A DNA stretch of 44,405 bases from an archaeon (GTDB lineage: Archaea; Iainarchaeota; Iainarchaeia; Iainarchaeales; JAAZKV01). This document shows positions 4,573-43,493 of the stretch, piece after piece. The stretch lies in contig JAVHOV010000016.1 of assembly GCA_036170245.1 (NCBI GenBank), forward strand, positions 1 to 44,405. Direction: 5' to 3'. Positions within the stretch are counted from its first letter, which is position 1, and every line of letters starts with the position of its first letter. The notes below the pieces were generated by a model, which was not told the DNA's origin, did no database searches, and saw nothing but the letters and a program-made list of their open reading frames with translations. Both the position numbers and the translations under genes were made by a program.

Positions 4573-5181
4573 GTGGAACTAAACGAAAGCTTTAAACTTG
4601 CACAAGTCAGAAATGAACTACTTGATCATGCAAAAAAACACGCTCTTTACAAAAACGTTTTGGATACAAAAGGACATATTGTTTTTGGAAGAGGAGACGA
4701 TGAATCAAAAATACTTTTTATTGGAGAAGCTCCTGGTTTTACTGAAAATGAAATAGGAAAACCTTTTGTGGGAAGAAGCGGAAAACTCCTTGAAGAATGG
4801 GTTAAGGAACTAAACATAAACCAAAAATATGCAATAATGAATGTTGTCCCAATGATTCCATTAAGTGAGGACAAAAAAATAAGACCCCCTACTCCCGAAG
4901 AAATAAACTACTTTTTGCCATACACAATGAAAATGGTTAATACAATCAATCCAAAAGTTATAGTACTTTTAGGAAAAAGCGCAGCAAGAGCATTTGGGAA
5001 AGAAGAAATGAAAGTAGGGCAAACTACTGAATATGAAGGGAAAAAAATGTTTTTCATTTACCATCCTGCATACTATCTTCGAAATGGCAGAAAAGGGCTT
5101 GAAGATTTGACTAACTTAAAAAAACTATTAACCCAAGAAGAAGACAAAAACAAACAGAGCTCAATAAAAAACTTTTTTTAA
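4573..5181 (+). CDS. udg: Uracil-DNA glycosylase, family 4-like
   Basis: IGEAPG, PFVGRSG, RPPT.EE, HPAY motifs; C-terminal PIP box QSSIKNFF. Confidence 0.9.
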   Translation: MELNESFKLAQVRNELLDHAKKHALYKNVLDTKGHIVFGRGDDESKILFIGEAPGFTENEIGKPFVGRSGKLLEEWVKELNINQKYAIMNVVPMIPLSEDKKIRPPTPEEINYFLPYTMKMVNTINPKVIVLLGKSAARAFGKEEMKVGQTTEYEGKKMFFIYHPAYYLRNGRKGLEDLTNLKKLLTQEEDKNKQSSIKNFF

Positions 5182-5226
5182 AAAATAAAAAAGCAAAAAA
5201 AATATTTAAAAAAATAATAGAAAGGG

Positions 5227-6009
5227 TTACCTTACATAAGAAAGGCAACCATCAACTTTTTCTTCAACATCTTGCTGTTCATGAAGATTTGTTGTTAATT
5301 CTTTGAATGCTTTTTCAATTGACTTAGCATCCTTTTCAATGCTCTTCATTTTCAGCTTCAAATTGAATCTCTTTGAAACAAGTTCAATTACTTGCTTTGC
5401 TGAACCTTGATCCCCATAAACTAACTGAGGATTAGTTTCACCCATTAAGCAAGCACCCTTTATTCCGTGCAACTTCCCAATACCAATTAACAATCCCGCA
5501 GCACCAGAAATCAATCCTTCTTTCTTGTCTTCCTTTGCTCCAAACTTCTTCCAAATATTAACTATCTCATCATCAGTTCCTGCAACAATTACTTCAGGTT
5601 TTTTATTCAATCTGTTGTCCCCTACATTTAACCCTGCTAGAGTTATACTTTCAGTAACTCCAACGCTTTTGAAAAAAGAAATTAAAGTCTCGGCAAATTC
5701 ATAATGCTCATGAGATGAACCAACTTTAAAATCAAGAGTAGGCTGAACGGGTCCAGAAAGAATCAAGAAATCCTTTCCTTTAAAATTGAAGTAAAATATT
5801 TCATCCTTAATCAAAAATATTTTTGAATCTTTTGTGTGAATGCTTGGAGGAAAAGAATCTGACAAAATTTCTGCAATCTTTTCAGTCTTTAATTGCTTAA
5901 GCAAATAATCAACAGCTATTTTTCCAACTAGACCAATTCCTGGCAGACCGACTAAAAGTGTTGCATCCTTAAGCTGAACTTTTTTTGTGACTAATATTCT
6001 TGTAGGCAT
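5227..6009 (-). CDS. Proteasome assembly chaperone (PAC2 family)
   Basis: GLPGIGLVGKIA, ISGAAGLL, CLMGET motifs; typical position after aIF2-alpha. Confidence 0.85.
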   Translation of the reverse strand: MPTRILVTKKVQLKDATLLVGLPGIGLVGKIAVDYLLKQLKTEKIAEILSDSFPPSIHTKDSKIFLIKDEIFYFNFKGKDFLILSGPVQPTLDFKVGSSHEHYEFAETLISFFKSVGVTESITLAGLNVGDNRLNKKPEVIVAGTDDEIVNIWKKFGAKEDKKEGLISGAAGLLIGIGKLHGIKGACLMGETNPQLVYGDQGSAKQVIELVSKRFNLKLKMKSIEKDAKSIEKAFKELTTNLHEQQDVEEKVDGCLSYVR

Positions 6010-18406: not shown

Positions 18407-19969
18407 TTAATTTTTGTTCTTAGCCAAAACGGGCTTTGACAAAAGTTTTTTTGCTTCTACTAAAATATTTTTTTTAGGATAAATTGCTTTTGACAATTGT
18501 TTCAAGAACTGAGTTTTCTTCTGTGAATTTTCAAGAGCAACTTCTAATACTTCAACAAGAGTTGAAACTGGAATTATTTTTACTTTAGCCAATTCTTCTT
18601 TGCCAACAACAATATCCCCAATATTACTTTTTGGAACAATTATTTCTTTGAAACCTGCTTTAATTGCAGCACTGACTTTAGCTGAAACTCCTCCCACAGG
18701 AAGAACTTCACCTCTTACAGAAAGAGAACCAGTCATTGCAACAATTTGCCTCACTGGCAACTCTTCTGCTGCTGAAATTACTGCAGTGGCAATTGAAACA
18801 CTAGCACTGTCCCCTTCTACACCTTCATAAGTCTGAAGGAATTGGATGTGAATATCTTTCAAAAATTCTTTTCCGCTAATTTTCTTAAAAATTACTGAAA
18901 CATTTTGCACAGCTTCTTTTGCAATTTCCCCTAATTTTCCAGTAGCAATAACTCTGCTTTCAGTTGTTGAACTTGAAGGAGTAACTGCGGCTTCAATCGG
19001 AATAATACTTCCAGCACTTCCGTCCCCGAAAACTGCGAGTCCATTAACTCTCCCAATTGTAACTCCATTGATTAAATAAACTTCATAATCTTTCTTTGTA
19101 TCAATCATTTTGTCAACGATTTGATTTTCAAGAGTTCTAGCAGACAACTTTGCTTCAAAAACATCTTGTCGCGTAACATATTTATGAGATTTTTCTTTTG
19201 CAATATCTCCAGCCCCTCTTACAAGTCCACCAAGGTCACGAAGCTTCAAAGTCAATTTACCTTTATGGTCACTTCTTCTTCTTGCTTCAAAAATAATTTC
19301 TTCAACAGCATCTCTAGCGAAGTGAGGAATTTTTCCATCCTTAATTACTTCCTGTGCAACAAACTGTGCAATCTTTTTTCTATTCTCATCATTGTCTTCC
19401 ATATCAACATTCATATAAACTTCGTAACCGTAACCTCTAATTCTGCTTCTTAATGCAGGGTGAACTTTTTCTAAATCCTGATAATTTCCTGCTGCAATTA
19501 AAACAAAGTCACAAGGAACTGGTTCTGTTCGAGTCATTGCCCCACTTGAGTTTTCGGACTGACCAGTAATAGAATATTTCTTTTCCTGCATTGCTGTCAA
19601 AAGTTCCTGCTGAGATTTGTGAGACAAAGTTGCAATTTCATCAATAAATAAAACTCCTCCACTAGCTCTATGAATCATTCCAGGTTCTACTCTTAAGTGA
19701 GCTGGAGTACCTAAGCCACCTGAATTGTGAACCAAAATATCTTCAACGAATAAGTTTCCTGTTTCGGTTGTAACATTATAAACGTACCCCTTATGTTGAC
19801 GCTTAGAGATTTTTGGAGAAAAGGTAGTAACTGATTTATTAAGTTTGAACGAAGGCTTTGAAGAAGCTTTGCGTAAAGAATTTTTTGGAGTAAGTTTTTC
19901 TTTAGAAGTTATTGAGTTAGTTTTCTTAGAACCCTTAACAATCACTGATTTAGTTTTCTTTAGAACCAT
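18407..19969 (-). CDS. lonB: C-intein fused to C-terminal half of LonB protease (Walker B to protease domain)
   Basis: [55 protein letters not shown] (Ser) and GGVSAK (Lys) dyad. Start is ATG 19969 or ATG 20026 (overlaps RT stop). Confidence 0.9.
19724..19969 (-). other. C-terminal half of split intein (IntC; blocks F and G)
   Basis: Ends in canonical His-Asn followed by Ser+1 at 19723-19721. Confidence 0.88.
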
Positions 19970-19989
19970 AACCAATACGTTTTGGAAAA

Positions 19990-20005
19990 CAATTAAATAC
20001 CTATT
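19990..20005 (-). promoter_or_regulatory. Candidate TATA-box promoter for the IntC-LonC gene
   Basis: AAATAGGTATTTAATT about 25-30 nt upstream of ATG 19969, spacing compatible with a leaderless archaeal transcript. Confidence 0.4.
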
Positions 20006-20025
20006 TGAGGAGAAACTAAAACTCA

Positions 20026-21324
20026 TTAAAAGCACAATTTTGTGAAAGAAAACTCTTTGATTGTTTGTTGTTTTAAGCGATAATTATTTGCGTGCTTAAA
20101 ATGCCCCAAATAAGAACTAAAAGAAGAACGAAAAGCTTTATCTTCAAAAGAACCTTTCTCAAAGAAAAAAATCTTGCTTTCTTGAAGCTCTTTACTTGCC
20201 ATCAAAAGTTTATTTTTGAAATTATGTAAAACTCTCTTTCTGACAAAAACACTCCAAGGCTTAATAATATAACCCAAAAAATCAATACCATTAGATAGGG
20301 GCAAAAGATTTACTTTATTTTTTAAATTCAAGAGCAAATGAGTTTCAACAAAATCCTTAATCTTCCAAAACCAATTTAACAATTCTTCTTTAGATTCTGA
20401 GAGCAAAATAAAATCATCAACGTATCTGACATAGTATTTGCATTTTAATTTTTTTTTTACAAAATTATCCAATTCATTCAAATAGACGTTTGCAAAGAAT
20501 TGGCTCGTGTGATTACCAATTGGAAGCCCCTTACCCTTCTCAACATTAATTAAGGATTTATAATTTGGAACTAGTCCACTAATCTCTTTTGTAGATTTTT
20601 GGATAAAATTTGTTGCAGGATCATGAAAAATAAGTTTTTTTGTAATCCAAAGCAAATCTTTTTTAAAATAATTATCAAAAAAACTAAAGCTATTTACTTT
20701 ATTTTCAATTATAAAAAACAAAATCTGCTTATCAATACTCATAAAGAAGTTACTTATATCTAGTTGTAGAAAATATGCTCTCTTTCTTCCAGAATTACCC
20801 CCAATTATTTTTCTTGTATTTCTTTGTAAATGTTTTACTGCTTTATGAGTCCCTTTATTTTTTCTACAAGCAAAACTATCTTTAGAAAAACTTGGTTCAA
20901 AAATAGTTTCAAGTGCGCTTACGATTATATGATGAACTATTCTATCTCTAAAATCTGCCGCAAAAATTTCTCTCGGCTTTGGTTTTAAGACAGTAAAACA
21001 AACAGAACGCCTCGGCTCATAAGTCTTATTATTTAAAGAATAATACAATTCTTGCAAATTTTGTTCAAGGTTTTCCTCAAACTTTAAAGCATTAACTGTA
21101 TTACGCTTTCTTTTTCTACAACTAATATAATTATTGTAAATATTTTGAAAGCTAAATAGAGCCGAGGGCGTTTCTTTTTCAAAACGAACACAACGAGCCT
21201 GGTTGTTGTTGTCGTTGTCCTTATTGTCGTTGTTGATGTTACCATTGTCGGTATTCAAGTTGTACGCGTTGTTCGGGTACGCAGGCATACTCGTTGTGTG
21301 CGAACCATCCATAGCTAAAACCAT
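20026..21324 (-). CDS. DGR reverse transcriptase (N-terminus includes translated TR)
   Basis: [48 protein letters not shown] (DGR SQ motif), [15 protein letters not shown]. Confidence 0.95.
21176..21296 (-). repeat. DGR template repeat (TR)
   Basis: 121 nt, 13 AAY codons; aligns with 22001-22118. Confidence 0.95.
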
Positions 21325-21490: not shown

Positions 21491-21838
21491 TTAATATTTT
21501 TGACTATTTAACCACGCTTGAGACTGTTTAGCTAAATCAACTACTAAACCAGAAGAATACTCATAAGAAGAAAACTTTTTAAAAACACCAACTTCCCTAC
21601 ACAAACGAACAACTAGCTTCAATTCCTCTACTAGCGCAACCAACTCTTGCAAAGCATTCCTTTTTTCAGGCAAAGAATTCGCACGCATTATTTGACAAGC
21701 TATTCCTCTACTTTTATTCCTTAAATCAGTTCCAAGAACATATTTATCATATCTTGAAAAACCCTTTACTAACTTTTCAAAATAAACACACAAATCAAAA
21801 GCCTTCTTATAAATCGGCAAATAATCATACTGAGCCAT
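21491..21838 (-). CDS. avd: Accessory variability determinant (Avd-like four-helix bundle)
   Basis: YLPIYKKAFDL...F.RYDKY.LG.DLR...LAKQ..AW; RBS GTGGTG before ATG 21838; lies between target and TR. Confidence 0.85.
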   Translation of the reverse strand: MAQYDYLPIYKKAFDLCVYFEKLVKGFSRYDKYVLGTDLRNKSRGIACQIMRANSLPEKRNALQELVALVEELKLVVRLCREVGVFKKFSSYEYSSGLVVDLAKQSQAWLNSQKY

Positions 21839-21966
21839 AAAAAACACCACTTTAAAATTTTTTTCGTGCTCCCTCAAAGGGAGCACTTATTCTTCTCTCA
21901 CTTCACGCATAATTCCTTAACGACGAATAATCAAACACCCCAAAACACATTGGTTTTGGGTATCTC

Positions 21967-21985
21967 GCAAATGCTTTGCATTTGC
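21967..21985 (-). promoter_or_regulatory. DGR target-recognition hairpin downstream of VR
   Basis: GCAAATGC-ttt-GCATTTGC perfect 8-bp stem 11 nt past the target stop codon. Confidence 0.75.
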
Positions 21986-21996
21986 TCAATCACCAA

Positions 21997-23029
21997 CTAA
22001 TTTTCAAAACGAACACAACGAGCCTGGAAGACGCCGTAGTCCTTATCGCCGAAGCCGATGCCACCATAGCTGGTATCCAAGTAGTACGCGTAGTTCGGGT
22101 ACGCAGGCATACTCGTTGAACTCCAGTAATAATTACATCCAATAAACATAGAATTACAAGTCCCAGTCGAATAATCATAAATTGCATTAATTTCATTCAC
22201 AGTAGGCAACCTCCAACCACTACCAGGAAGACTCGGCGTATTATTATTACAATAATCTAAACTAGACTGCCAAGTAATATTAATACCTTTATCAGCTTTC
22301 TGCCACATCAAACCAGAATTCAAATCACTAACAGTACCATTAGAATTGTCTCTCCAAACGTGCTTATAATCTGCACCATAAATTTCCCCATCTTCACCAG
22401 TCCCAATACAACTTCTTGAACTTCCACTTACCTCATAACAAGTTGTTTGTCCACTTCCAAGACCATAATACATCGGAACAGGATCAGCGCAACTCGGGCA
22501 CTGACTAGCTAACAAAGTTGCGTTAACCACATAAGGAGAACAATCAAACATCACCTTAGCAGGATACTTTTCAGTCTTACTCAAACCATCCCGAGTAACA
22601 TACGTAACCGTCACATCCTGAGAAACAACTTTCCCCTCAACACAAACAGCACTCGTATCAACCCTAAAAAACTTATTACTACCCTGCGCCAAATCCTCAG
22701 AAAAAGAAACATTACTATCACCCACACTAACATTAGAAACAGTAATAACATCCCCACTATTATTCAACAAACGAACAACAAAATTACCATCACTAGGATC
22801 AACCAAAGACTCAGTAACACCAATAACCTGACTTTTCAAACCCAACTGATTACCAGAAGAAGAAACTTGCGAACTATTATCAATTTGAGTAATAATCAAA
22901 CCAACAACAATCAAACCAATAACAACAACAACCGCAATAATAACCAAATACTCAATAGTACCCTGCGCTCTAGAATAAGAAACTAATTTACTATTCTCTC
23001 TCTCTCTCTCTCTCTCTCTGCGAATTCAT
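21997..23029 (-). CDS. DGR target: class III signal peptide (pilin-like) protein with C-terminal DUF1566/Lcl C-type lectin-fold domain; frameshifted at (GA)12 in this assembly
   Basis: RAQGTIEYLVIIAVVVVIG upstream of the listed ORF start; GQTTCY, DN.NGTV.D..SGLMWQ, WRLPT..E, YWSST, ARCVR; ATG 23029 with RBS GGAGTGG. Confidence 0.88.
22001..22118 (-). repeat. DGR variable repeat (VR)
   Basis: 20 substitutions vs TR by manual alignment, 19 at TR adenines, plus one codon deletion; encodes the target's C-terminus. Confidence 0.95.
22995..23019 (-). repeat. (GA)12 dinucleotide microsatellite
   Basis: tctctc run directly after the 5' codons ATG AAT TCG of the target. Confidence 0.95.
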
Positions 23030-23059: not shown

Positions 23060-23282
23060 TACCAGTAACAAAGAACCAAACTTATATATAAATATTCTAT
23101 AATTTGCTGTGAATGCTCCATCCTTACGATGTCTACCGGCAGAATAATTTTTGTTTATGTTGCCTGTAGTCAATATTCCTATAGAATCCAAAAGCCGTTC
23201 TAACTCTTTTAAATCTTGCAATTCTTTTTACTGACAATATTTCCTCTTTTGAGGGTTTATTGAAATTATTTGAAAAATACAT
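23060..23282 (-). pseudogene. Probable LAGLIDADG homing endonuclease remnant
   Basis: LKELERLLDSIGI.TT...RKDG.FTANYRIFI resembles the second half of a LAGLIDADG domain; truncated and out of frame with ATG 23282. Confidence 0.5.
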
Positions 23283-23286
23283 TCAA

Positions 23287-23443
23287 GCCACCTCCGCAAA
23301 AAATGAATTTTTTCATAGACGGCTCTGCTGCTTTTGGAGACATTAAACCCTTTAGCCAACAGGCGACCCCGCTAAACGCGGGGTAAAGGTTTAAGTCGAG
23401 AAAAGCAGAGTCTAAAGAAAAAATTCACCAAAGAGGAGGTGGC
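23287..23443. ncRNA. 157-nt long imperfect hairpin (structured RNA or MITE-like element)
   Basis: Nested pairs GCCACCTCC/GGAGGTGGC, TGAATTTTTTC/GAAAAAATTCA, TAGAC/GTCTA, CTGCTTTT/AAAAGCAG, TTAAACC/GGTTTAA, CCCCGC/GCGGGG. Confidence 0.6.
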
Positions 23444-23476
23444 AATGTTTTGAAAAATACAATACTAGAAAAAAGA

Positions 23477-23851
23477 TTAAGCAGTTGTTTGAGAAAGTTT
23501 GAACAAAGAATCTTTTTCAGAAACTTTTTCTGCATTCTTATCCCCAGTCTTTGTAATTATTTTGTGCTCAGGAGTAAAAGTAGCTTTCTTTTCACCAATA
23601 GAAAGTTCAACAACTTCCCCTTCATAAGGATGTCTGTTTAAAGAATAAATTCTTGAAGGAATTATTTTTTCATCTTTCATTCCAAGCACATAAACAATTT
23701 CTTTTTTAGGTAAAACCATTGCTTCATATCCTTTTTCGTGTTTCTCAACTAGATCAGGATATTTTTTTGACATTGTTGCCCAAAGTTTTCCATAAGAAAT
23801 TTCTTTCCAAACACCCTTTAGACAAACAACGAACGAATCTTCGTCAATTGA
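23477..23851 (-). other. N-terminal half of split intein (IntN, about 124 aa; blocks A and B)
   Basis: SIDEDSFVV block A after HDPLQS; YEGEVVEL......TFTPEHKI block B; ends at stop 23477. Confidence 0.88.
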
Positions 23852-24547
23852 CGATTGCAAGGGGTCGTGACGAACATCACCAAGTAAAGCACCAGCTCTA
23901 CTCCCTGTTGCTTCAAAGAAAGGAGCAATCTTTTTTCCTAAATTATTAACTAACAATTTTGGAGTAACGTTAGAATCCTTACTGCGCATCTGCCCGCCTA
24001 AAGCAACTCCAATTAATAAAAATCCACCAACAACAATTAATGCTGCATAAACAACATCAGGGTACCATTTCAATTGCCATAGTAAAGTTGAAAGAACCAT
24101 CCAGCCAATCGGAAGCAAAAGAGAAACAAGTCTCATTGAGTCATCCTGTTTTGCAGTTTCAAAGTGAGCTGCTTCAATAATTCTTTTTCCTTCCCCAGCT
24201 TTTACTACTCTAACTCGTGGATTATTTGGGTCCTCTGAATTAGGGTAAATCAAAATATCCTGCAACTGAGAAACTGGTAAAATTTCACTCATTGCTTGAG
24301 CTAATAAAGATTTTCCTGTCCCTGGAACACCCACAAGCAAAACATTTCTTTTCTGTGCAGCAGCTTTTCTAATAATTTCAACACTTTTCTCTTGACCAAT
24401 TACTTGCTCAATCAAAGAAGAAGGAACTGCAATTTCAGAAGTATTTGTAAAACTAGTTAAATCAAAATCTTTAACGTTTGCAACAACACCTTGAATGGGA
24501 GCATCAAGTTTTTTTACAGAATGAGCTTTTTTCTTTTTTGCACTCAT
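23477..24547 (-). CDS. lonB: N-terminal half of LonB protease fused to N-intein
   Basis: QVIGQE, Walker A GVPGTGKS, two TM helices, PKLLV.N, GALLGDVRHDPLQ. Confidence 0.92.
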   Translation of the reverse strand: MSAKKKKAHSVKKLDAPIQGVVANVKDFDLTSFTNTSEIAVPSSLIEQVIGQEKSVEIIRKAAAQKRNVLLVGVPGTGKSLLAQAMSEILPVSQLQDILIYPNSEDPNNPRVRVVKAGEGKRIIEAAHFETAKQDDSMRLVSLLLPIGWMVLSTLLWQLKWYPDVVYAALIVVGGFLLIGVALGGQMRSKDSNVTPKLLVNNLGKKIAPFFEATGSRAGALLGDVRHDPLQSSIDEDSFVVCLKGVWKEISYGKLWATMSKKYPDLVEKHEKGYEAMVLPKKEIVYVLGMKDEKIIPSRIYSLNRHPYEGEVVELSIGEKKATFTPEHKIITKTGDKNAEKVSEKDSLFKLSQTTA

Positions 24548-24666
24548 GCACATAGTCTGGTGGAGAAGGTTAAAAAAGGTATTTGGGAGAAAAAAATATG
24601 TTCAAAAGGCCAAAAAATAAAACTTAAACAAGTAAGTTTTAAAATAACAACGCCCCACTATAGTGG

Positions 24667-34780: not shown

Positions 34781-35851
34781 TTAATTTATTTTCTTCAATA
34801 ATCTGGTTGAAACATTTCCATGTTTTATTTGTTCACAAGAAATCAATTTTTTCTGTTCAAGAGTAGAAATTGCTAACCTTAAAGTTCTTTCAGAGTAATC
34901 CCCGCCAAGTTTTTCATACACTTCACCTGATTCAGCCTGCTTCTTTGATTGTAAAAAATCAAGAATGTCTTTTTCCTGGTCATTCAAGTTTGAAGTAACT
35001 TCAACTTTAACAGGTTTTTCCTGCATAAAACAAGCTCTGACATGTTCCGCAAGAACTCTCTTTGAATTCTTTCTTTCAGCAAGTCTTCCTGCTTTAAGTA
35101 AAACGCTTAATGCAACTCTTGAGTCCCCTCCGAATTTGAAGGCGTGAGCCGCGCACAATGCAACTACATCCTTGTCCAATGCATAATCAAAAAAAGCAAA
35201 TTTTGTTCTTGAAAGAAGAATCTCTTTCAACTCTGGAACAGAATAATTCTCAAAAGGAATTGTAGAACACTGTAGTGAACTTCTTACCCTATCATCAATT
35301 TGGGAAAGGAAAAAAGAATCATTTGAAATGAAAACTAACCCTATTAACACTTTTTGCTGCTCAGGCAAACGAGACAAATCATAAAGCAAATTCTTTGTAG
35401 AATCATCCTTCAATAACTGCTCCGCTTCATCAAAAATAATTATAGGAATTATTTTAGTTGTTTTTAAAATAGAAATTATTCTTGAGAAAACCTCTTCAGA
35501 ACTAACCCCTCTTTCTGGAACCGCAGCTCCTAAAGAATTTGCAAGCTTAAACAAAATTGACTGCCTGGAAGAATTTTCAAAACAATTAACATAAATTCCT
35601 TTTGCCCTATCAGAATACTCTTCAAGCTCATTTAATACATACTTTAGAGTAACTGTTTTTCCTGTACCCGGTTTACCGTGTACAAAAACATTAGTTGGTT
35701 TTCTCCCGATTGAAGCGGGCTTTAGACAAAAAACAAGCTCAGAAACAGCTTCATCTCTGAAAGGAAGTTTCTCAGGAACATAATCAGGATAAAGCACACG
35801 CTCATCCTTGAAAAGAGTAATATCCTTACTTGATTCAAAAACATTTGCCAT
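34781..35851 (-). CDS. cdc6: Cdc6/Orc1 family replication initiator
   Basis: YVPEKLPFR, GKPGTGKT, YVNC, FDEAE, RVRSSL, GDSRVAL, short wHTH. Confidence 0.9.
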   Translation of the reverse strand: MANVFESSKDITLFKDERVLYPDYVPEKLPFRDEAVSELVFCLKPASIGRKPTNVFVHGKPGTGKTVTLKYVLNELEEYSDRAKGIYVNCFENSSRQSILFKLANSLGAAVPERGVSSEEVFSRIISILKTTKIIPIIIFDEAEQLLKDDSTKNLLYDLSRLPEQQKVLIGLVFISNDSFFLSQIDDRVRSSLQCSTIPFENYSVPELKEILLSRTKFAFFDYALDKDVVALCAAHAFKFGGDSRVALSVLLKAGRLAERKNSKRVLAEHVRACFMQEKPVKVEVTSNLNDQEKDILDFLQSKKQAESGEVYEKLGGDYSERTLRLAISTLEQKKLISCEQIKHGNVSTRLLKKIN

Positions 35852-41677: not shown

Positions 41678-42001
41678 ATGAATTCAATCGAAGCACTAAT
41701 TGCGATTTTGGCACTCATTGCAAGTATTGGAATACTAATTGAAACAGTTAATTTGCAAAAAGATAATTTTCAAAATGCTATTGATGCAATAACCGCAAAA
41801 ACCAATTCATTAAACTGCACATTTTTAATTGATTCAATCATAAGCAACTCTGCTAATAATTACAGCAGTGAACTAAACTGTACTGCAAACAAAAATAGTG
41901 TAAGTTCTAAATCAAATGAAATAACAAAAACCTCTTACATACTTACAGAAGCCACTAGCGACATCACTCTTACTGTGACTAAATATGACCACTACAAATA
42001 A
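41678..42001 (+). CDS. Pilin-like protein
   Basis: MNSIEALIAILALI N-terminus; in pilin-like cluster. Confidence 0.5.
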   Translation: MNSIEALIAILALIASIGILIETVNLQKDNFQNAIDAITAKTNSLNCTFLIDSIISNSANNYSSELNCTANKNSVSSKSNEITKTSYILTEATSDITLTVTKYDHYK

Positions 42002-42476
42002 ATTTTTATTAAATCAAAAAGGGATTATCTTTTCTACTGATGCAGTAATCAGTTTCATAATTGCACTATTCACAACTATGATTTTTGTTTTATACCTTTC
42101 AAATATTGCAACAAACGAGCAGCAAAATATTGAACAAATTGAACTTGATGAAAAAGCAATATTTGTTATTGATTCAATGGTAAAAAATCAAAATATAGAA
42201 AATGCGATTCTTGGAGCATGCAACTATGATTTAAGCAAAAAAAGAGTGATGCCAAACAATTTGAATTTTACTCAAATAACAACAAACTCCAAAACTATTG
42301 AAAGTAAAAACTTCTTTGTAAAAGATATTAAAATAACATTCACTCAAACAAATCAAAAAGAAACTATTTTACTAACCGAACAAACTTCAAAAAGATGCAT
42401 TAATGTAAAACGATTTGCACTAATTGATGGAAGAAAAGCAATTATTGAGGTAACTACATGCAAAAAAGAACTGTAA
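41985..42476 (+). CDS. Pilin-like protein (class III signal peptide)
   Basis: QKG|IIFSTDAVISF. Confidence 0.65.
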   Translation: MTTTNKFLLNQKGIIFSTDAVISFIIALFTTMIFVLYLSNIATNEQQNIEQIELDEKAIFVIDSMVKNQNIENAILGACNYDLSKKRVMPNNLNFTQITTNSKTIESKNFFVKDIKITFTQTNQKETILLTEQTSKRCINVKRFALIDGRKAIIEVTTCKKEL

Positions 42477-42811
42477 CTAAAGGATTTGTTTTTACCTTTG
42501 AAGCAATTCTTACAATGCTTTTATTTACACTAATGCTATTTGCAATTCCAACTCAAACCAACCCAAACCTAAAAGAAGTGTTAATACTGCAACAATCAAA
42601 TGATCTTCTTAGGGTTTGGAGCCAAACTTATCCCACTGAACAGGAAATGATTTCAGATGCAAAAATTGTTTTTCAAAATAATTCAACTGTAAAAATAAAT
42701 GGAAAAGAACTAATTACTTGCCAAGGTAAAAATAAGATTTCAACAGAAGGGATTCTTTTGGATGATTTGCTTGTTGAAAACAACATAACAATAATTGTAT
42801 GTTATAACTAA
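42458..42811 (+). CDS. Pilin-like protein (class III signal peptide)
   Basis: TKG|FVFTFEAIL. Confidence 0.65.
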   Translation: MQKRTVTKGFVFTFEAILTMLLFTLMLFAIPTQTNPNLKEVLILQQSNDLLRVWSQTYPTEQEMISDAKIVFQNNSTVKINGKELITCQGKNKISTEGILLDDLLVENNITIIVCYN

Positions 42812-42826
42812 TTAAAACAAAAAATA

Positions 42827-43249
42827 TTATTCTTCAAAAGAAACTATAATACCTTTATTTGTTTTCTTGAGAATTATTACAAAGCTTTTTTCAAAATAGA
42901 TTTTTGGAATAATTTGAATAACATTTGTTTCAACTTCAAACAATTTTGACTCTGTAGAAATATTTAGTTTAGTTCCCGTTGAATAAAACGAAATGCTCTT
43001 TACTGGAGAATATTCAAAAGTTTTTACTGTTCCTTCCCCAAGAAAAGTCATTAAAGAAATATTTTCACTTAATTCATCTGCAATTGATTTTGCAAGCAAA
43101 TCATCACTTGTGCTCAAAAAGGAGTCTACTGTACCTGACGCAATTGGTAAAAATATGCCCAAAATCCCAAAAAACGCAGTCACTAAAATTAAGTACTCTA
43201 AGGAGGATTGACCTTTTTGGTTTATTTGCAAAAGCCTTTTTGAACACAT
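42827..43249 (-). CDS. Pilin-like protein (class III signal peptide)
   Basis: QKG|QSSLEYLIL. Confidence 0.7.
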   Translation of the reverse strand: MCSKRLLQINQKGQSSLEYLILVTAFFGILGIFLPIASGTVDSFLSTSDDLLAKSIADELSENISLMTFLGEGTVKTFEYSPVKSISFYSTGTKLNISTESKLFEVETNVIQIIPKIYFEKSFVIILKKTNKGIIVSFEE

Positions 43250-43274
43250 GCAAAATTACCATAAACAAATTAAT

Positions 43275-43493
43275 TTACTTTATATCATCAATTTTCTTGA
43301 AAATACTGTCAGAGGTTTCTTCAAGCTTTTTGCTTCCTTCTTCACTAGTTGCCTGAAGCTGGGAAACTAAAATCAATACTACCGCAACAACTGCTGCAAG
43401 TACTATTATCAGTTCCACTGAAATCTGGGCCTTATCTTCAAGAAATATTTTTTCAGAATTCATTAAATCACAAAAGAGCTTCTTTTTGATCAA
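43275..43493 (-). CDS. Small archaeal pilin (class III signal peptide)
   Basis: KA|QISVELIIVLAAVVAVV. Confidence 0.75.
   Translation of the reverse strand: MIKKKLFCDLMNSEKIFLEDKAQISVELIIVLAAVVAVVLILVSQLQATSEEGSKKLEETSDSIFKKIDDIK

Follow-up and report, generated by a model that had tools for sequence, protein, structure and literature searches.

Diversity-generating retroelements (DGRs) are common in DPANN archaea and in candidate phyla radiation (CPR) organisms, and the roles of their target proteins are largely open. The stretch studied here, contig JAVHOV010000016.1 of assembly GCA_036170245.1 from an archaeon of the Iainarchaeota (44,405 nucleotides (nt), referred to as the window), carries such an element next to a 330-codon gene on the minus strand. 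What kind of protein is varied at this locus, which of its residues are varied and how would they be presented on the cell? An original prediction took the gene to be a DGR target and described a class III signal, a beta-rich domain, a Cys/Pro linker and a DUF1566/Lcl tip, and every one of these elements was located on the minus strand. In our best explanation, which we hold to be somewhat better than an even bet, the product of the gene is a type IV pilin of the archaeal kind, built from two modules and bearing a DGR-varied lectin-fold tip, and expression of the gene is apparently gated by an (AG)n tract.

The retroelement and its target gene

The body of the target consists of 330 open codons running from position 22989 to the stop codon TAG at 21999..21997. 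It is followed on the same strand by an Avd-like open reading frame (ORF), a template repeat (TR) and a reverse transcriptase (RT) ORF, and its 3' end forms the variable region (VR). The parts of the target and of the cassette are as follows.

22882..22989, minus: end of the leader, predicted cleavage site RA/Q (Q9 at 22965), Glu at +5 and hydrophobic helix (body residues 1-36)
22543..22824, minus: pilin-like beta-sandwich stalk (residues 56-149), from the AlphaFold2 model and Foldseek
22453..22542, minus: Cys/Pro-rich linker (residues 150-179), from the sequence, with predicted local distance difference test scores (pLDDT) below 50 at residues 166-173
22000..22452, minus: Lcl_C/DUF1566 C-type-lectin-fold tip (residues 180-330), from PF07603, the domain model and Foldseek
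22001..22118, minus: VR, in which the changed bases span 22092..22028
21939..21985, minus: two 8-bp hairpins directly after the stop codon (z -4.35)
21491..21886, minus: Avd-like accessory gene, ORF as listed, with the true start probably at an internal ATG (NCBIfam, Pfam)
21176..21296, minus: TR of 121 nt with 13 AAY codons, in frame within the 5' end of the RT ORF
20026..21324, minus: RT ORF (RVT_1)

The VR (118 nt) and the TR were observed to differ at 20 positions, 19 of which are adenines in the TR (10 A>G and 9 A>T); the remaining mismatch is a G>A change, and one 3-nt gap lies opposite an AAC run. The VR comprises 39 codons, in agreement with the expectation that about this number of final codons would be variable. 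The expected number of 13 AAY codons was likewise counted among the 39 codons of the TR, and 11 of the 12 that are aligned to a VR codon are altered. The final 26 nt at the 3' end of the repeat are identical in TR and VR and occur exactly twice in the window, where none is expected from 100 shuffles. No hairpin comparable to those found 3' of the VR was seen 3' of the TR (z -1.24).

The RT ORF gave an RVT_1 match (E 3.7e-19), and its translation contains YVDD and GNHTSQ, which we take to be motifs marking DGR reverse transcriptases. Its best NCBIfam match is a group II RT, far below the cut-off, in libraries that hold no DGR-specific RT model. The Avd-like ORF was matched by NCBIfam DivGenRetAVD (E 2e-8, 34.5 bits against a cut-off of 80) and by Pfam bAvd (E 4.1e-6, 27.7 bits against a cut-off of 40). 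With its RT, its Avd-like gene and a repeat pair that differs almost exclusively at template adenines, the locus is a complete DGR and the 330-codon gene is its target, as had been proposed. The same target-Avd-TR-RT cassette is carried by L003, one of five loci (L001-L005) obtained from 43 pattern matches in a scan of genome contigs. In that cassette, 21 of the 24 mismatches over 120 nt fall at TR adenines, including five A>C changes.

A near-identical protein (P0001), encoded on a different contig of 24,872 nt, differs from the window protein at three of 316 residues. One of these is the start residue and the other two are N300Y and N303Y, both of which correspond to AAC codons in the TR. 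The two substitutions would be consistent with adenine-directed change or with a mixed population, and current activity of the DGR is thereby only hinted at. We also noticed that the 5' end of the RT ORF contains the TR in frame, both in the window (21176-21324) and in L003 (3431-3577). At neither locus does a Met codon separate the TR from the conserved N-terminus of the RT, and the RT may therefore be translated through the TR.

Pilin-like module, lectin-fold tip and family

In frame upstream of the TTG at 22947, the signal region reads ...NSKLVSYSRA followed, after the predicted cut, by QGTIEYLVIIAVVVVIGLIVVGLII, which places Gln at +1 and Glu at +5 of the predicted cleavage site. The class III motif, which combines a short charged leader, [KR][GA] ahead of the cut and about 20 hydrophobic residues with these two positions, can be read in the sequence. 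The Pfam family Class_IIIsignal (PF04021) was matched in 31 of the 48 aligned family members (E<=0.01). The pattern Q-G-[ST]-x-E-Y-[LIV] was found in 37 of the 48, and nine of the remaining eleven sequences start within the hydrophobic helix.

An AlphaFold2 model of the full body, built on the 48-sequence alignment, has a mean pLDDT of 79. It consists of a helix (residues 11-36), a seven-strand sandwich (residues 56-149), a weakly predicted linker at residues 166-173 and a confident C-terminal domain; the sequence of the linker is CPSCADPVP. When the full model was compared with the PDB by Foldseek, ten chains were matched at E<=0.001. The top matches are archaeal type IV pili, namely those of Pyrobaculum arsenaticum (6w8u, E 6.8e-5), Sulfolobus islandicus (6nav) and P. 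calidifontis (8fk7), and the pilin-like character that had been assigned to the N-terminal module is supported by both sequence and predicted fold. The rest of the ten chains comprise two FlaF/FlaG proteins, the Lcl C-domain 8q4e, two monooxygenase subunits and two invasin/intimin entries. The helix and the stalk were found to be the most conserved parts of the family, with column entropies of 0.89 and 1.12 bits over the 48 sequences, against 1.75 bits for the tip outside the VR.

Elsewhere in the window, four small ORFs (163, 117, 140 and 72 residues) at 41985-43493 have pilin-like N-termini, for example KG/QSSLEYL and KA/QISVELI (the slash marks the cleavage site). A weak match to Class_IIIsignal was obtained for two of them (E 0.0086 and 0.001), and the cluster offers candidate partner pilins for the DGR target.

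The C-terminal part of the protein belongs to Lcl_C (PF07603, formerly DUF1566), which matched with E 1.7e-19 and 70.7 bits (cut-off 34.9) and is present in all 48 aligned relatives. When the C-terminal 161 residues were modelled alone, a pLDDT of 92.4 and a predicted template modelling score (pTM) of 0.85 were obtained. The C-type-lectin fold that had been anticipated for the tip was recovered by Foldseek. The C-domain of Legionella Lcl (8q4e, E 8.6e-5, TMt 0.60) is the sole match below E 0.001, the C-domain of Bdellovibrio Bd2740 (8oks) aligns with TMt 0.64-0.74 (0.74 for 8oks_A), and many animal C-type lectin-like domains follow, including 1v4l, 6puv, 3bdw and 1egg. These two C-domains are the nearest solved folds to the tip, at sequence identities of 16-23%, and the search outputs identify neither of them with a DGR target or a pilin component. 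No PDB chain was significantly matched when the tip was searched by sequence (best E 0.023).

Cys247 (first long helix) and Cys325 (last strand) are two invariant cysteines in the 48 sequences; they occupy the canonical position of the lectin-fold disulfide, and we infer that they form it. The varied residues (299-321) map in the model to two strands and to the loop preceding the last strand. Variability in the family peaks in the columns that face the 12 aligned AAY codons (3.09 bits), in comparison with 0.86 bits at TR codons whose first two positions are free of A (Mann-Whitney p 1.8e-5). The term lectin is used here as a description of the fold, and a ligand-binding role of the tip is putative.

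A protein search yielded 114 matches at E<=0.001 among 2225 candidates, of which about 65 are full-length relatives at E<1e-48. Few relatives are named; those that are appear as 'DUF1566 domain-containing protein' (from Candidatus Diapherotrites or an 'archaeon') or as 'UPF0333 family'. Two of the five loci are labelled Candidatus Iainarchaeum, a DPANN genus. The archaeal host that had been suggested from the sequence is in keeping with these relatives, as those bearing names are DPANN archaea. All 14 half-length matches that were fetched have the same signal and stalk with other C-terminal parts, and the Pfam domains precomputed for such matches include glycine-rich PF21722, Laminin_G_3 (PF13385), PF07581, PF03382 and PF06739. 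As a further example, L004 is a signal-plus-stalk gene with a different tip and no DGR alongside. One signal-plus-stalk module is thus fused to many tips, and this points to a modular archaeal type IV pilin family. An archaeal-type signal and stalk were also noticed in L005 (1944-2426, 50% identity), on a 2.8-kb contig that bears the label of a CPR bacterium (Shapirobacteria); this label is doubtful and the contig may be a mis-binned archaeal one.

Start of the gene and competing explanations

The gene had been taken to begin at 22990, and this did not hold. Upstream of the TTG at 22947, which lies inside the helix, the body frame contains none of the start codons ATG, GTG and TTG, and it is opened only by the rarer table 11 start codon ATT at 23025. 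A plausible start region was observed further upstream.

23081..23093, minus: TATA-box-like ATTTATATATAAG, found by eye; the block TTTATATAT also stands before the orthologue in L001
23035..23043, minus: Shine-Dalgarno-like AAGGAGTGG, 5 nt before the ATG; its counterpart in L001 is GAGGAGTGG
23027..23029, minus: conserved ATG start (MNSQRE...); its frame as assembled ends after 12 codons at TAG 22993..22991
22996..23019, minus: (AG)12 tract that separates the ATG from the signal peptide, from Tandem Repeats Finder (TRF) and the sequence

The sequence AATTCGC separates the ATG from the (AG)12 tract, and the frame of the ATG as assembled reads MNSQRERERERE. Either (AG)13 or (AG)10 would bring the ATG back in frame. 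The tract is the sole period-2 array among the 49 TRF rows of the window and, as in a contingency locus, it is a frame-setting repeat in the 5' coding region. The orthologue in L001 (83% identity over 1005 nt) keeps the promoter-like block, the Shine-Dalgarno sequence and the ATG; its tract is (AG)5 and its ATG reads directly into the signal. Five relatives (P0002, P0013, P0015, P0016 and P0017) begin with MNSQRE(RE)..., in frame with the signal, and the leaders of relatives differ in length (MNSQRES, MNSQRERES and MNSQRERERS), which is variation between lineages. The ATG is accordingly the ancestral start, and the tract has lengthened in this lineage. The out-of-frame (AG)12 is either an OFF state of the phase-variation type or an assembly slip. 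In the available part of a 2025 review of phase variation, archaea are named only as a future direction.

The preferred reading would work as follows. The class III signal would direct export, and a prepilin peptidase would cut between RA and QGT. The N-terminal hydrophobic helix and the beta-sandwich stalk would form a pilin module seated in a type IV pilus-like filament, where the bulk of the protein would make it most likely a minor or tip subunit. The short Cys/Pro linker would bear the C-type-lectin-fold Lcl_C domain as the ligand-binding tip. By copying the TR with adenine-specific errors, the DGR would overwrite the last 39 codons; about twelve residues, carried by the strands and loops that precede the last conserved strand, would be randomised in this way, which would probably allow the cell to go on altering what it adheres to. 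Expression would be gated by the (AG)n tract, which separates the start codon from the signal and would presumably act as a reversible switch.

Several observations weigh against this reading. In the window protein, the Class_IIIsignal match (E 1.2e-4, 22.3 bits) is slightly below the gathering score of 23.7 bits. The pilin matches of the model have modest TM-scores (TMt 0.38-0.49), and the FlaF/FlaG proteins, which are not pilus subunits, match about equally well. A scan of 39 other ORFs in the window revealed no prepilin peptidase, assembly ATPase or platform protein. Across (AG)12, the ATG at 23029 falls out of step with the body frame by one base, which leaves the signal with no in-frame canonical start, and the allele may therefore make no exported protein. 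In addition, the G>A difference and the 3-nt gap mean that a single step could not turn the present TR into the present VR. The differences seen in P0001 are known at the protein level from two records and could stem from assembly of a mixed population.

Some of these points would suit a surface receptor that stands outside any filament, with the class III signal processed or retained as an anchor, the helix fixing monomers or small oligomers in the membrane and the stalk raising the DGR-varied tip above the surface of the cell. Sulfolobus has sugar-binding proteins with class III signals, which offer a model for such a receptor. No assembly genes adjoin the gene in the window or in L001-L004, membrane-anchored proteins of the FlaF/FlaG type fit the model about as well as pilins do, and the protein, at 330 residues, is more than twice as long as the matched major pilins (131-140 residues). 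However, the helix and the stalk are highly conserved over about 48 relatives and across different tip domains, and conservation of this kind suggests packing constraints beyond those of a simple anchor. Retention of the Glu at +5 and the presence in the window of other small pilin-like ORFs with a similar signal also count against the receptor, which we consider rather unlikely.

The frame of the ATG bears on two other accounts. If the frameshift were an assembly or sequencing slip in the dinucleotide repeat, the gene would be in frame and constitutive, and otherwise as in the preferred reading. Repeat tracts are error-prone, the window is a single consensus, and every relative that shows the MNSQRE leader is in frame. 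On the other hand, P0001, from a separate contig with a different VR, is annotated from the same internal TTG, and nine of the 47 database relatives in alignment A1 also start inside the helix; both observations come from protein records and do not amount to proof. A slip is accordingly a serious possibility, if not the one we would choose. The same out-of-frame ATG and the same annotation of P0001 could instead mark a decaying locus, in which the target is a pseudogene and the DGR no longer works. The non-A mismatch, the 3-nt gap and the reduction of the endonuclease-like neighbour (described below) to a remnant of 41 residues would fit such decay. Yet open reading frames are retained by the 330-codon body, the Avd-like gene and the RT alike, one extra repeat unit restores the frame, and otherwise identical proteins differ at two AAC sites. 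Furthermore, non-A differences occur in 23% and length differences, mostly beside AAC, in about 7% of the 372 DGRs catalogued in the available part of Wu et al. 2018 (PMC5758913), and the non-adenine difference and codon-sized gap near AAC seen here fit within this range. Decay is thus very unlikely in our estimate, and the gated, pilin-borne tip is the reading that we retain.

Origin, setting and relation to known systems

The original prediction also held that the gene strongly favours T-ending codons and hinted at a different origin. The preference was borne out. In the target, T makes up 0.615 and A 0.091 of third positions, as compared with 0.33-0.50 and 0.25-0.43 in the 28 other minus-strand ORFs. 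The amino acids of the gene together with the pooled usage of these ORFs predict 0.50 for T and 0.27 for A, and none of 5000 composition-matched simulations attained the value of the target for either base (z about 5 to 8). At four-fold sites outside the VR, the fractions of A/C/G/T are 0.08/0.00/0.19/0.73 in the target and 0.32/0.06/0.08/0.53 in the pooled minus-strand ORFs, and G-ending codons account for 34 of 52 purine pairs in the former and 810 of 2426 in the latter.

Foreign origin was rejected as the explanation. The orthologues in L001 and L003, which come from two other genomes, are biased likewise against their own neighbours (four-fold A 0.13 against 0.31-0.36), and the bias therefore belongs to the gene family rather than to a recent import. 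It is absent from the co-resident RT and intermediate in the Avd gene (21491-21886). At synonymous sites, the target (22000-22989) and its orthologues in L001 (2004-2936) and L003 (1653-2630) are alike poor in A and C and rich in G and T throughout. A footprint of adenine mutagenesis over the whole gene is the less likely cause, as C is depleted too, no gradient toward the VR was observed and five of the 21 changes at TR adenines in L003 are A>C. Sense-strand deamination under heavy transcription (A>G and C>T) would produce a depletion of A and C and would fit the pattern. As a separate matter, third positions in the window are asymmetric between strands, with A at 0.41-0.53 in plus-strand ORFs and T at 0.33-0.50 in minus-strand ORFs. 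The plus strand is A-rich regardless of gene direction, and an Orc1/Cdc6 gene lies at 34781-35851.

The entire DGR cassette was found to lie between the two halves of a split intein that breaks the LonB gene.

23477..24553, minus: N-half of LonB ending ...RHDPLQ, followed by the intein N-part of 124 residues
18407..20035, minus: intein C-part (...ILVHN), followed by the C-half of LonB starting SGGLGTPAH

The first of these ORFs (24553..23477) aligns to Thermococcus LonB until ...RHDPLQS, at residue 218 of the 4zpx chain, and then continues for 124 extra residues. The second (20035..18407) begins with about 100 extra residues ending in ILVHN and resumes LonB from SGGLGTPAH at chain residue 217-218. 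The two sets of extra residues weakly match complementary ends of Pfam Intein_splicing, both below the cut-off (profile positions 15-92, E 0.005; positions 101-155, E 0.011). In L001 (1-2936) and L002 (3901-6836), the N-half of LonB, the intein N-part, an intact ORF and the pilin-like gene were observed as far as the contigs extend. The intact ORF (358 or 362 residues) is endonuclease-like; an RtcB model that includes an intein aligns with it over the intein segment (E 9.4e-20, far below the cut-off). The window retains the 41-residue remnant of this ORF (E 2e-9).

The layout is of the 'fractured gene' type described by Dassa et al. 2009 (PMC2677866), with the DGR as additional content. As in the fractured genes covered by the available part of that study, LonB is broken at one point by intein halves and an endonuclease-like ORF stands in the gap. 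The present case differs in that a whole DGR cassette and its target also occupy the gap, and in that the host gene is an archaeal protease rather than a gene of DNA metabolism. In an extended picture, which we put forward only as an unlikely one, an AG-switched, DGR-randomised lectin-fold tip would sit on a DPANN type IV pilus, the cassette would be cargo of the split-intein/homing-endonuclease element in LonB, and intein homing would spread hypermutation between genomes.

The cassette of L003 sits elsewhere, between two near-identical copies of a 260-residue gene (752-1534 and 4802-5533), and these flanking copies suggest insertion or duplication at a different site. A near-perfect hairpin of about 170 nt (23455..23275, minus strand; minimum free energy -77.5 kcal/mol, z -9.1) was observed 3' of the intein N-part, ahead of the endonuclease-like remnant. 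It is kept in L001, where it likewise stands before the endonuclease-like ORF (469-700, z -7.1), is absent from L002 and has no Rfam match. The rest of the window encodes archaeal housekeeping functions (PCNA, primase, GINS, Orc1/Cdc6, RFC, eIF2-alpha and PheRS), and no tRNA genes or Rfam families were found in it.

The tip and its variable end resemble bacterial DGR targets that have been described. LdtA of Legionella pneumophila is an outer-membrane lipoprotein and a DGR target, and 'category d' of Wu et al. 2018 comprises DUF1566/CLec2 targets. According to the available part of that study, these proteins share with the present one a VR at the C-terminal end of a DUF1566-type lectin-fold domain and AAY codons in the TR. 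Display of the varied end on the cell surface can be counted as shared as well, although it is predicted from sequence here. The carrier differs, being an archaeal class III signal with a pilin-like stalk instead of a lipoprotein anchor. In the type V pili of Bacteroides, as far as the available text describes them (Macadangdang et al. 2024, bioRxiv 10.1101/2024.11.15.621889), a DGR likewise varies the ligand-binding part of a pilus-associated adhesin. Those pili are bacterial and have another assembly route and fold, whereas the present system is archaeal, of the type IV kind and known at the level of sequence.

The arrangement of a small pilin module, a short linker and a bulky ligand-binding module is also that of PilB and PilC of Streptococcus sanguinis (Raynaud et al. 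2021, PMC8179133). In the accessible sections of that work, the bulky module is thought to be placed at the tip of the filament, and one carrier is described with many fused modules. The same sections present a bacterial survey of vWA or concanavalin-like modules with no hypermutation, in contrast to the archaeal, DGR-linked case here.

Archaeal DGRs with lectin-fold variable proteins, as found here, were described by Paul 2015 (PMC4372165) and Handa 2016 (PMC5006420); their texts contain no mention of a pilin, a signal or a transmembrane segment, unlike the target in the window. In the excerpts available from Roux 2021 (PMC8144416), archaeal clade-5 targets are typically devoid of a recognisable transmembrane or other conserved domain, and it is asked whether archaeal targets are membrane-bound. 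Most such targets 'remain entirely uncharacterized' in the words of the available excerpt of Paul and Eren 2022. In our literature search, whose scope did not extend to Paul et al. 2017 (Nat Microbiol) and supplements, no description was found of a DGR target with a class III signal or a pilin module.

For one archaeal clade, about 65 targets with a prepilin-type signal and a pilin-like stalk provide a concrete and testable answer to the question of what DGRs vary. The locus also opens two separate questions, one concerning a frame-setting repeat in an archaeal surface gene and the other a DGR cassette within a fractured, intein-bearing gene. If the preferred reading is true, export would place the varied tip on a type IV pilus or display it in the manner of one, and the idea of the 'modular pilin' would extend to archaea and be linked there to programmed hypermutation.

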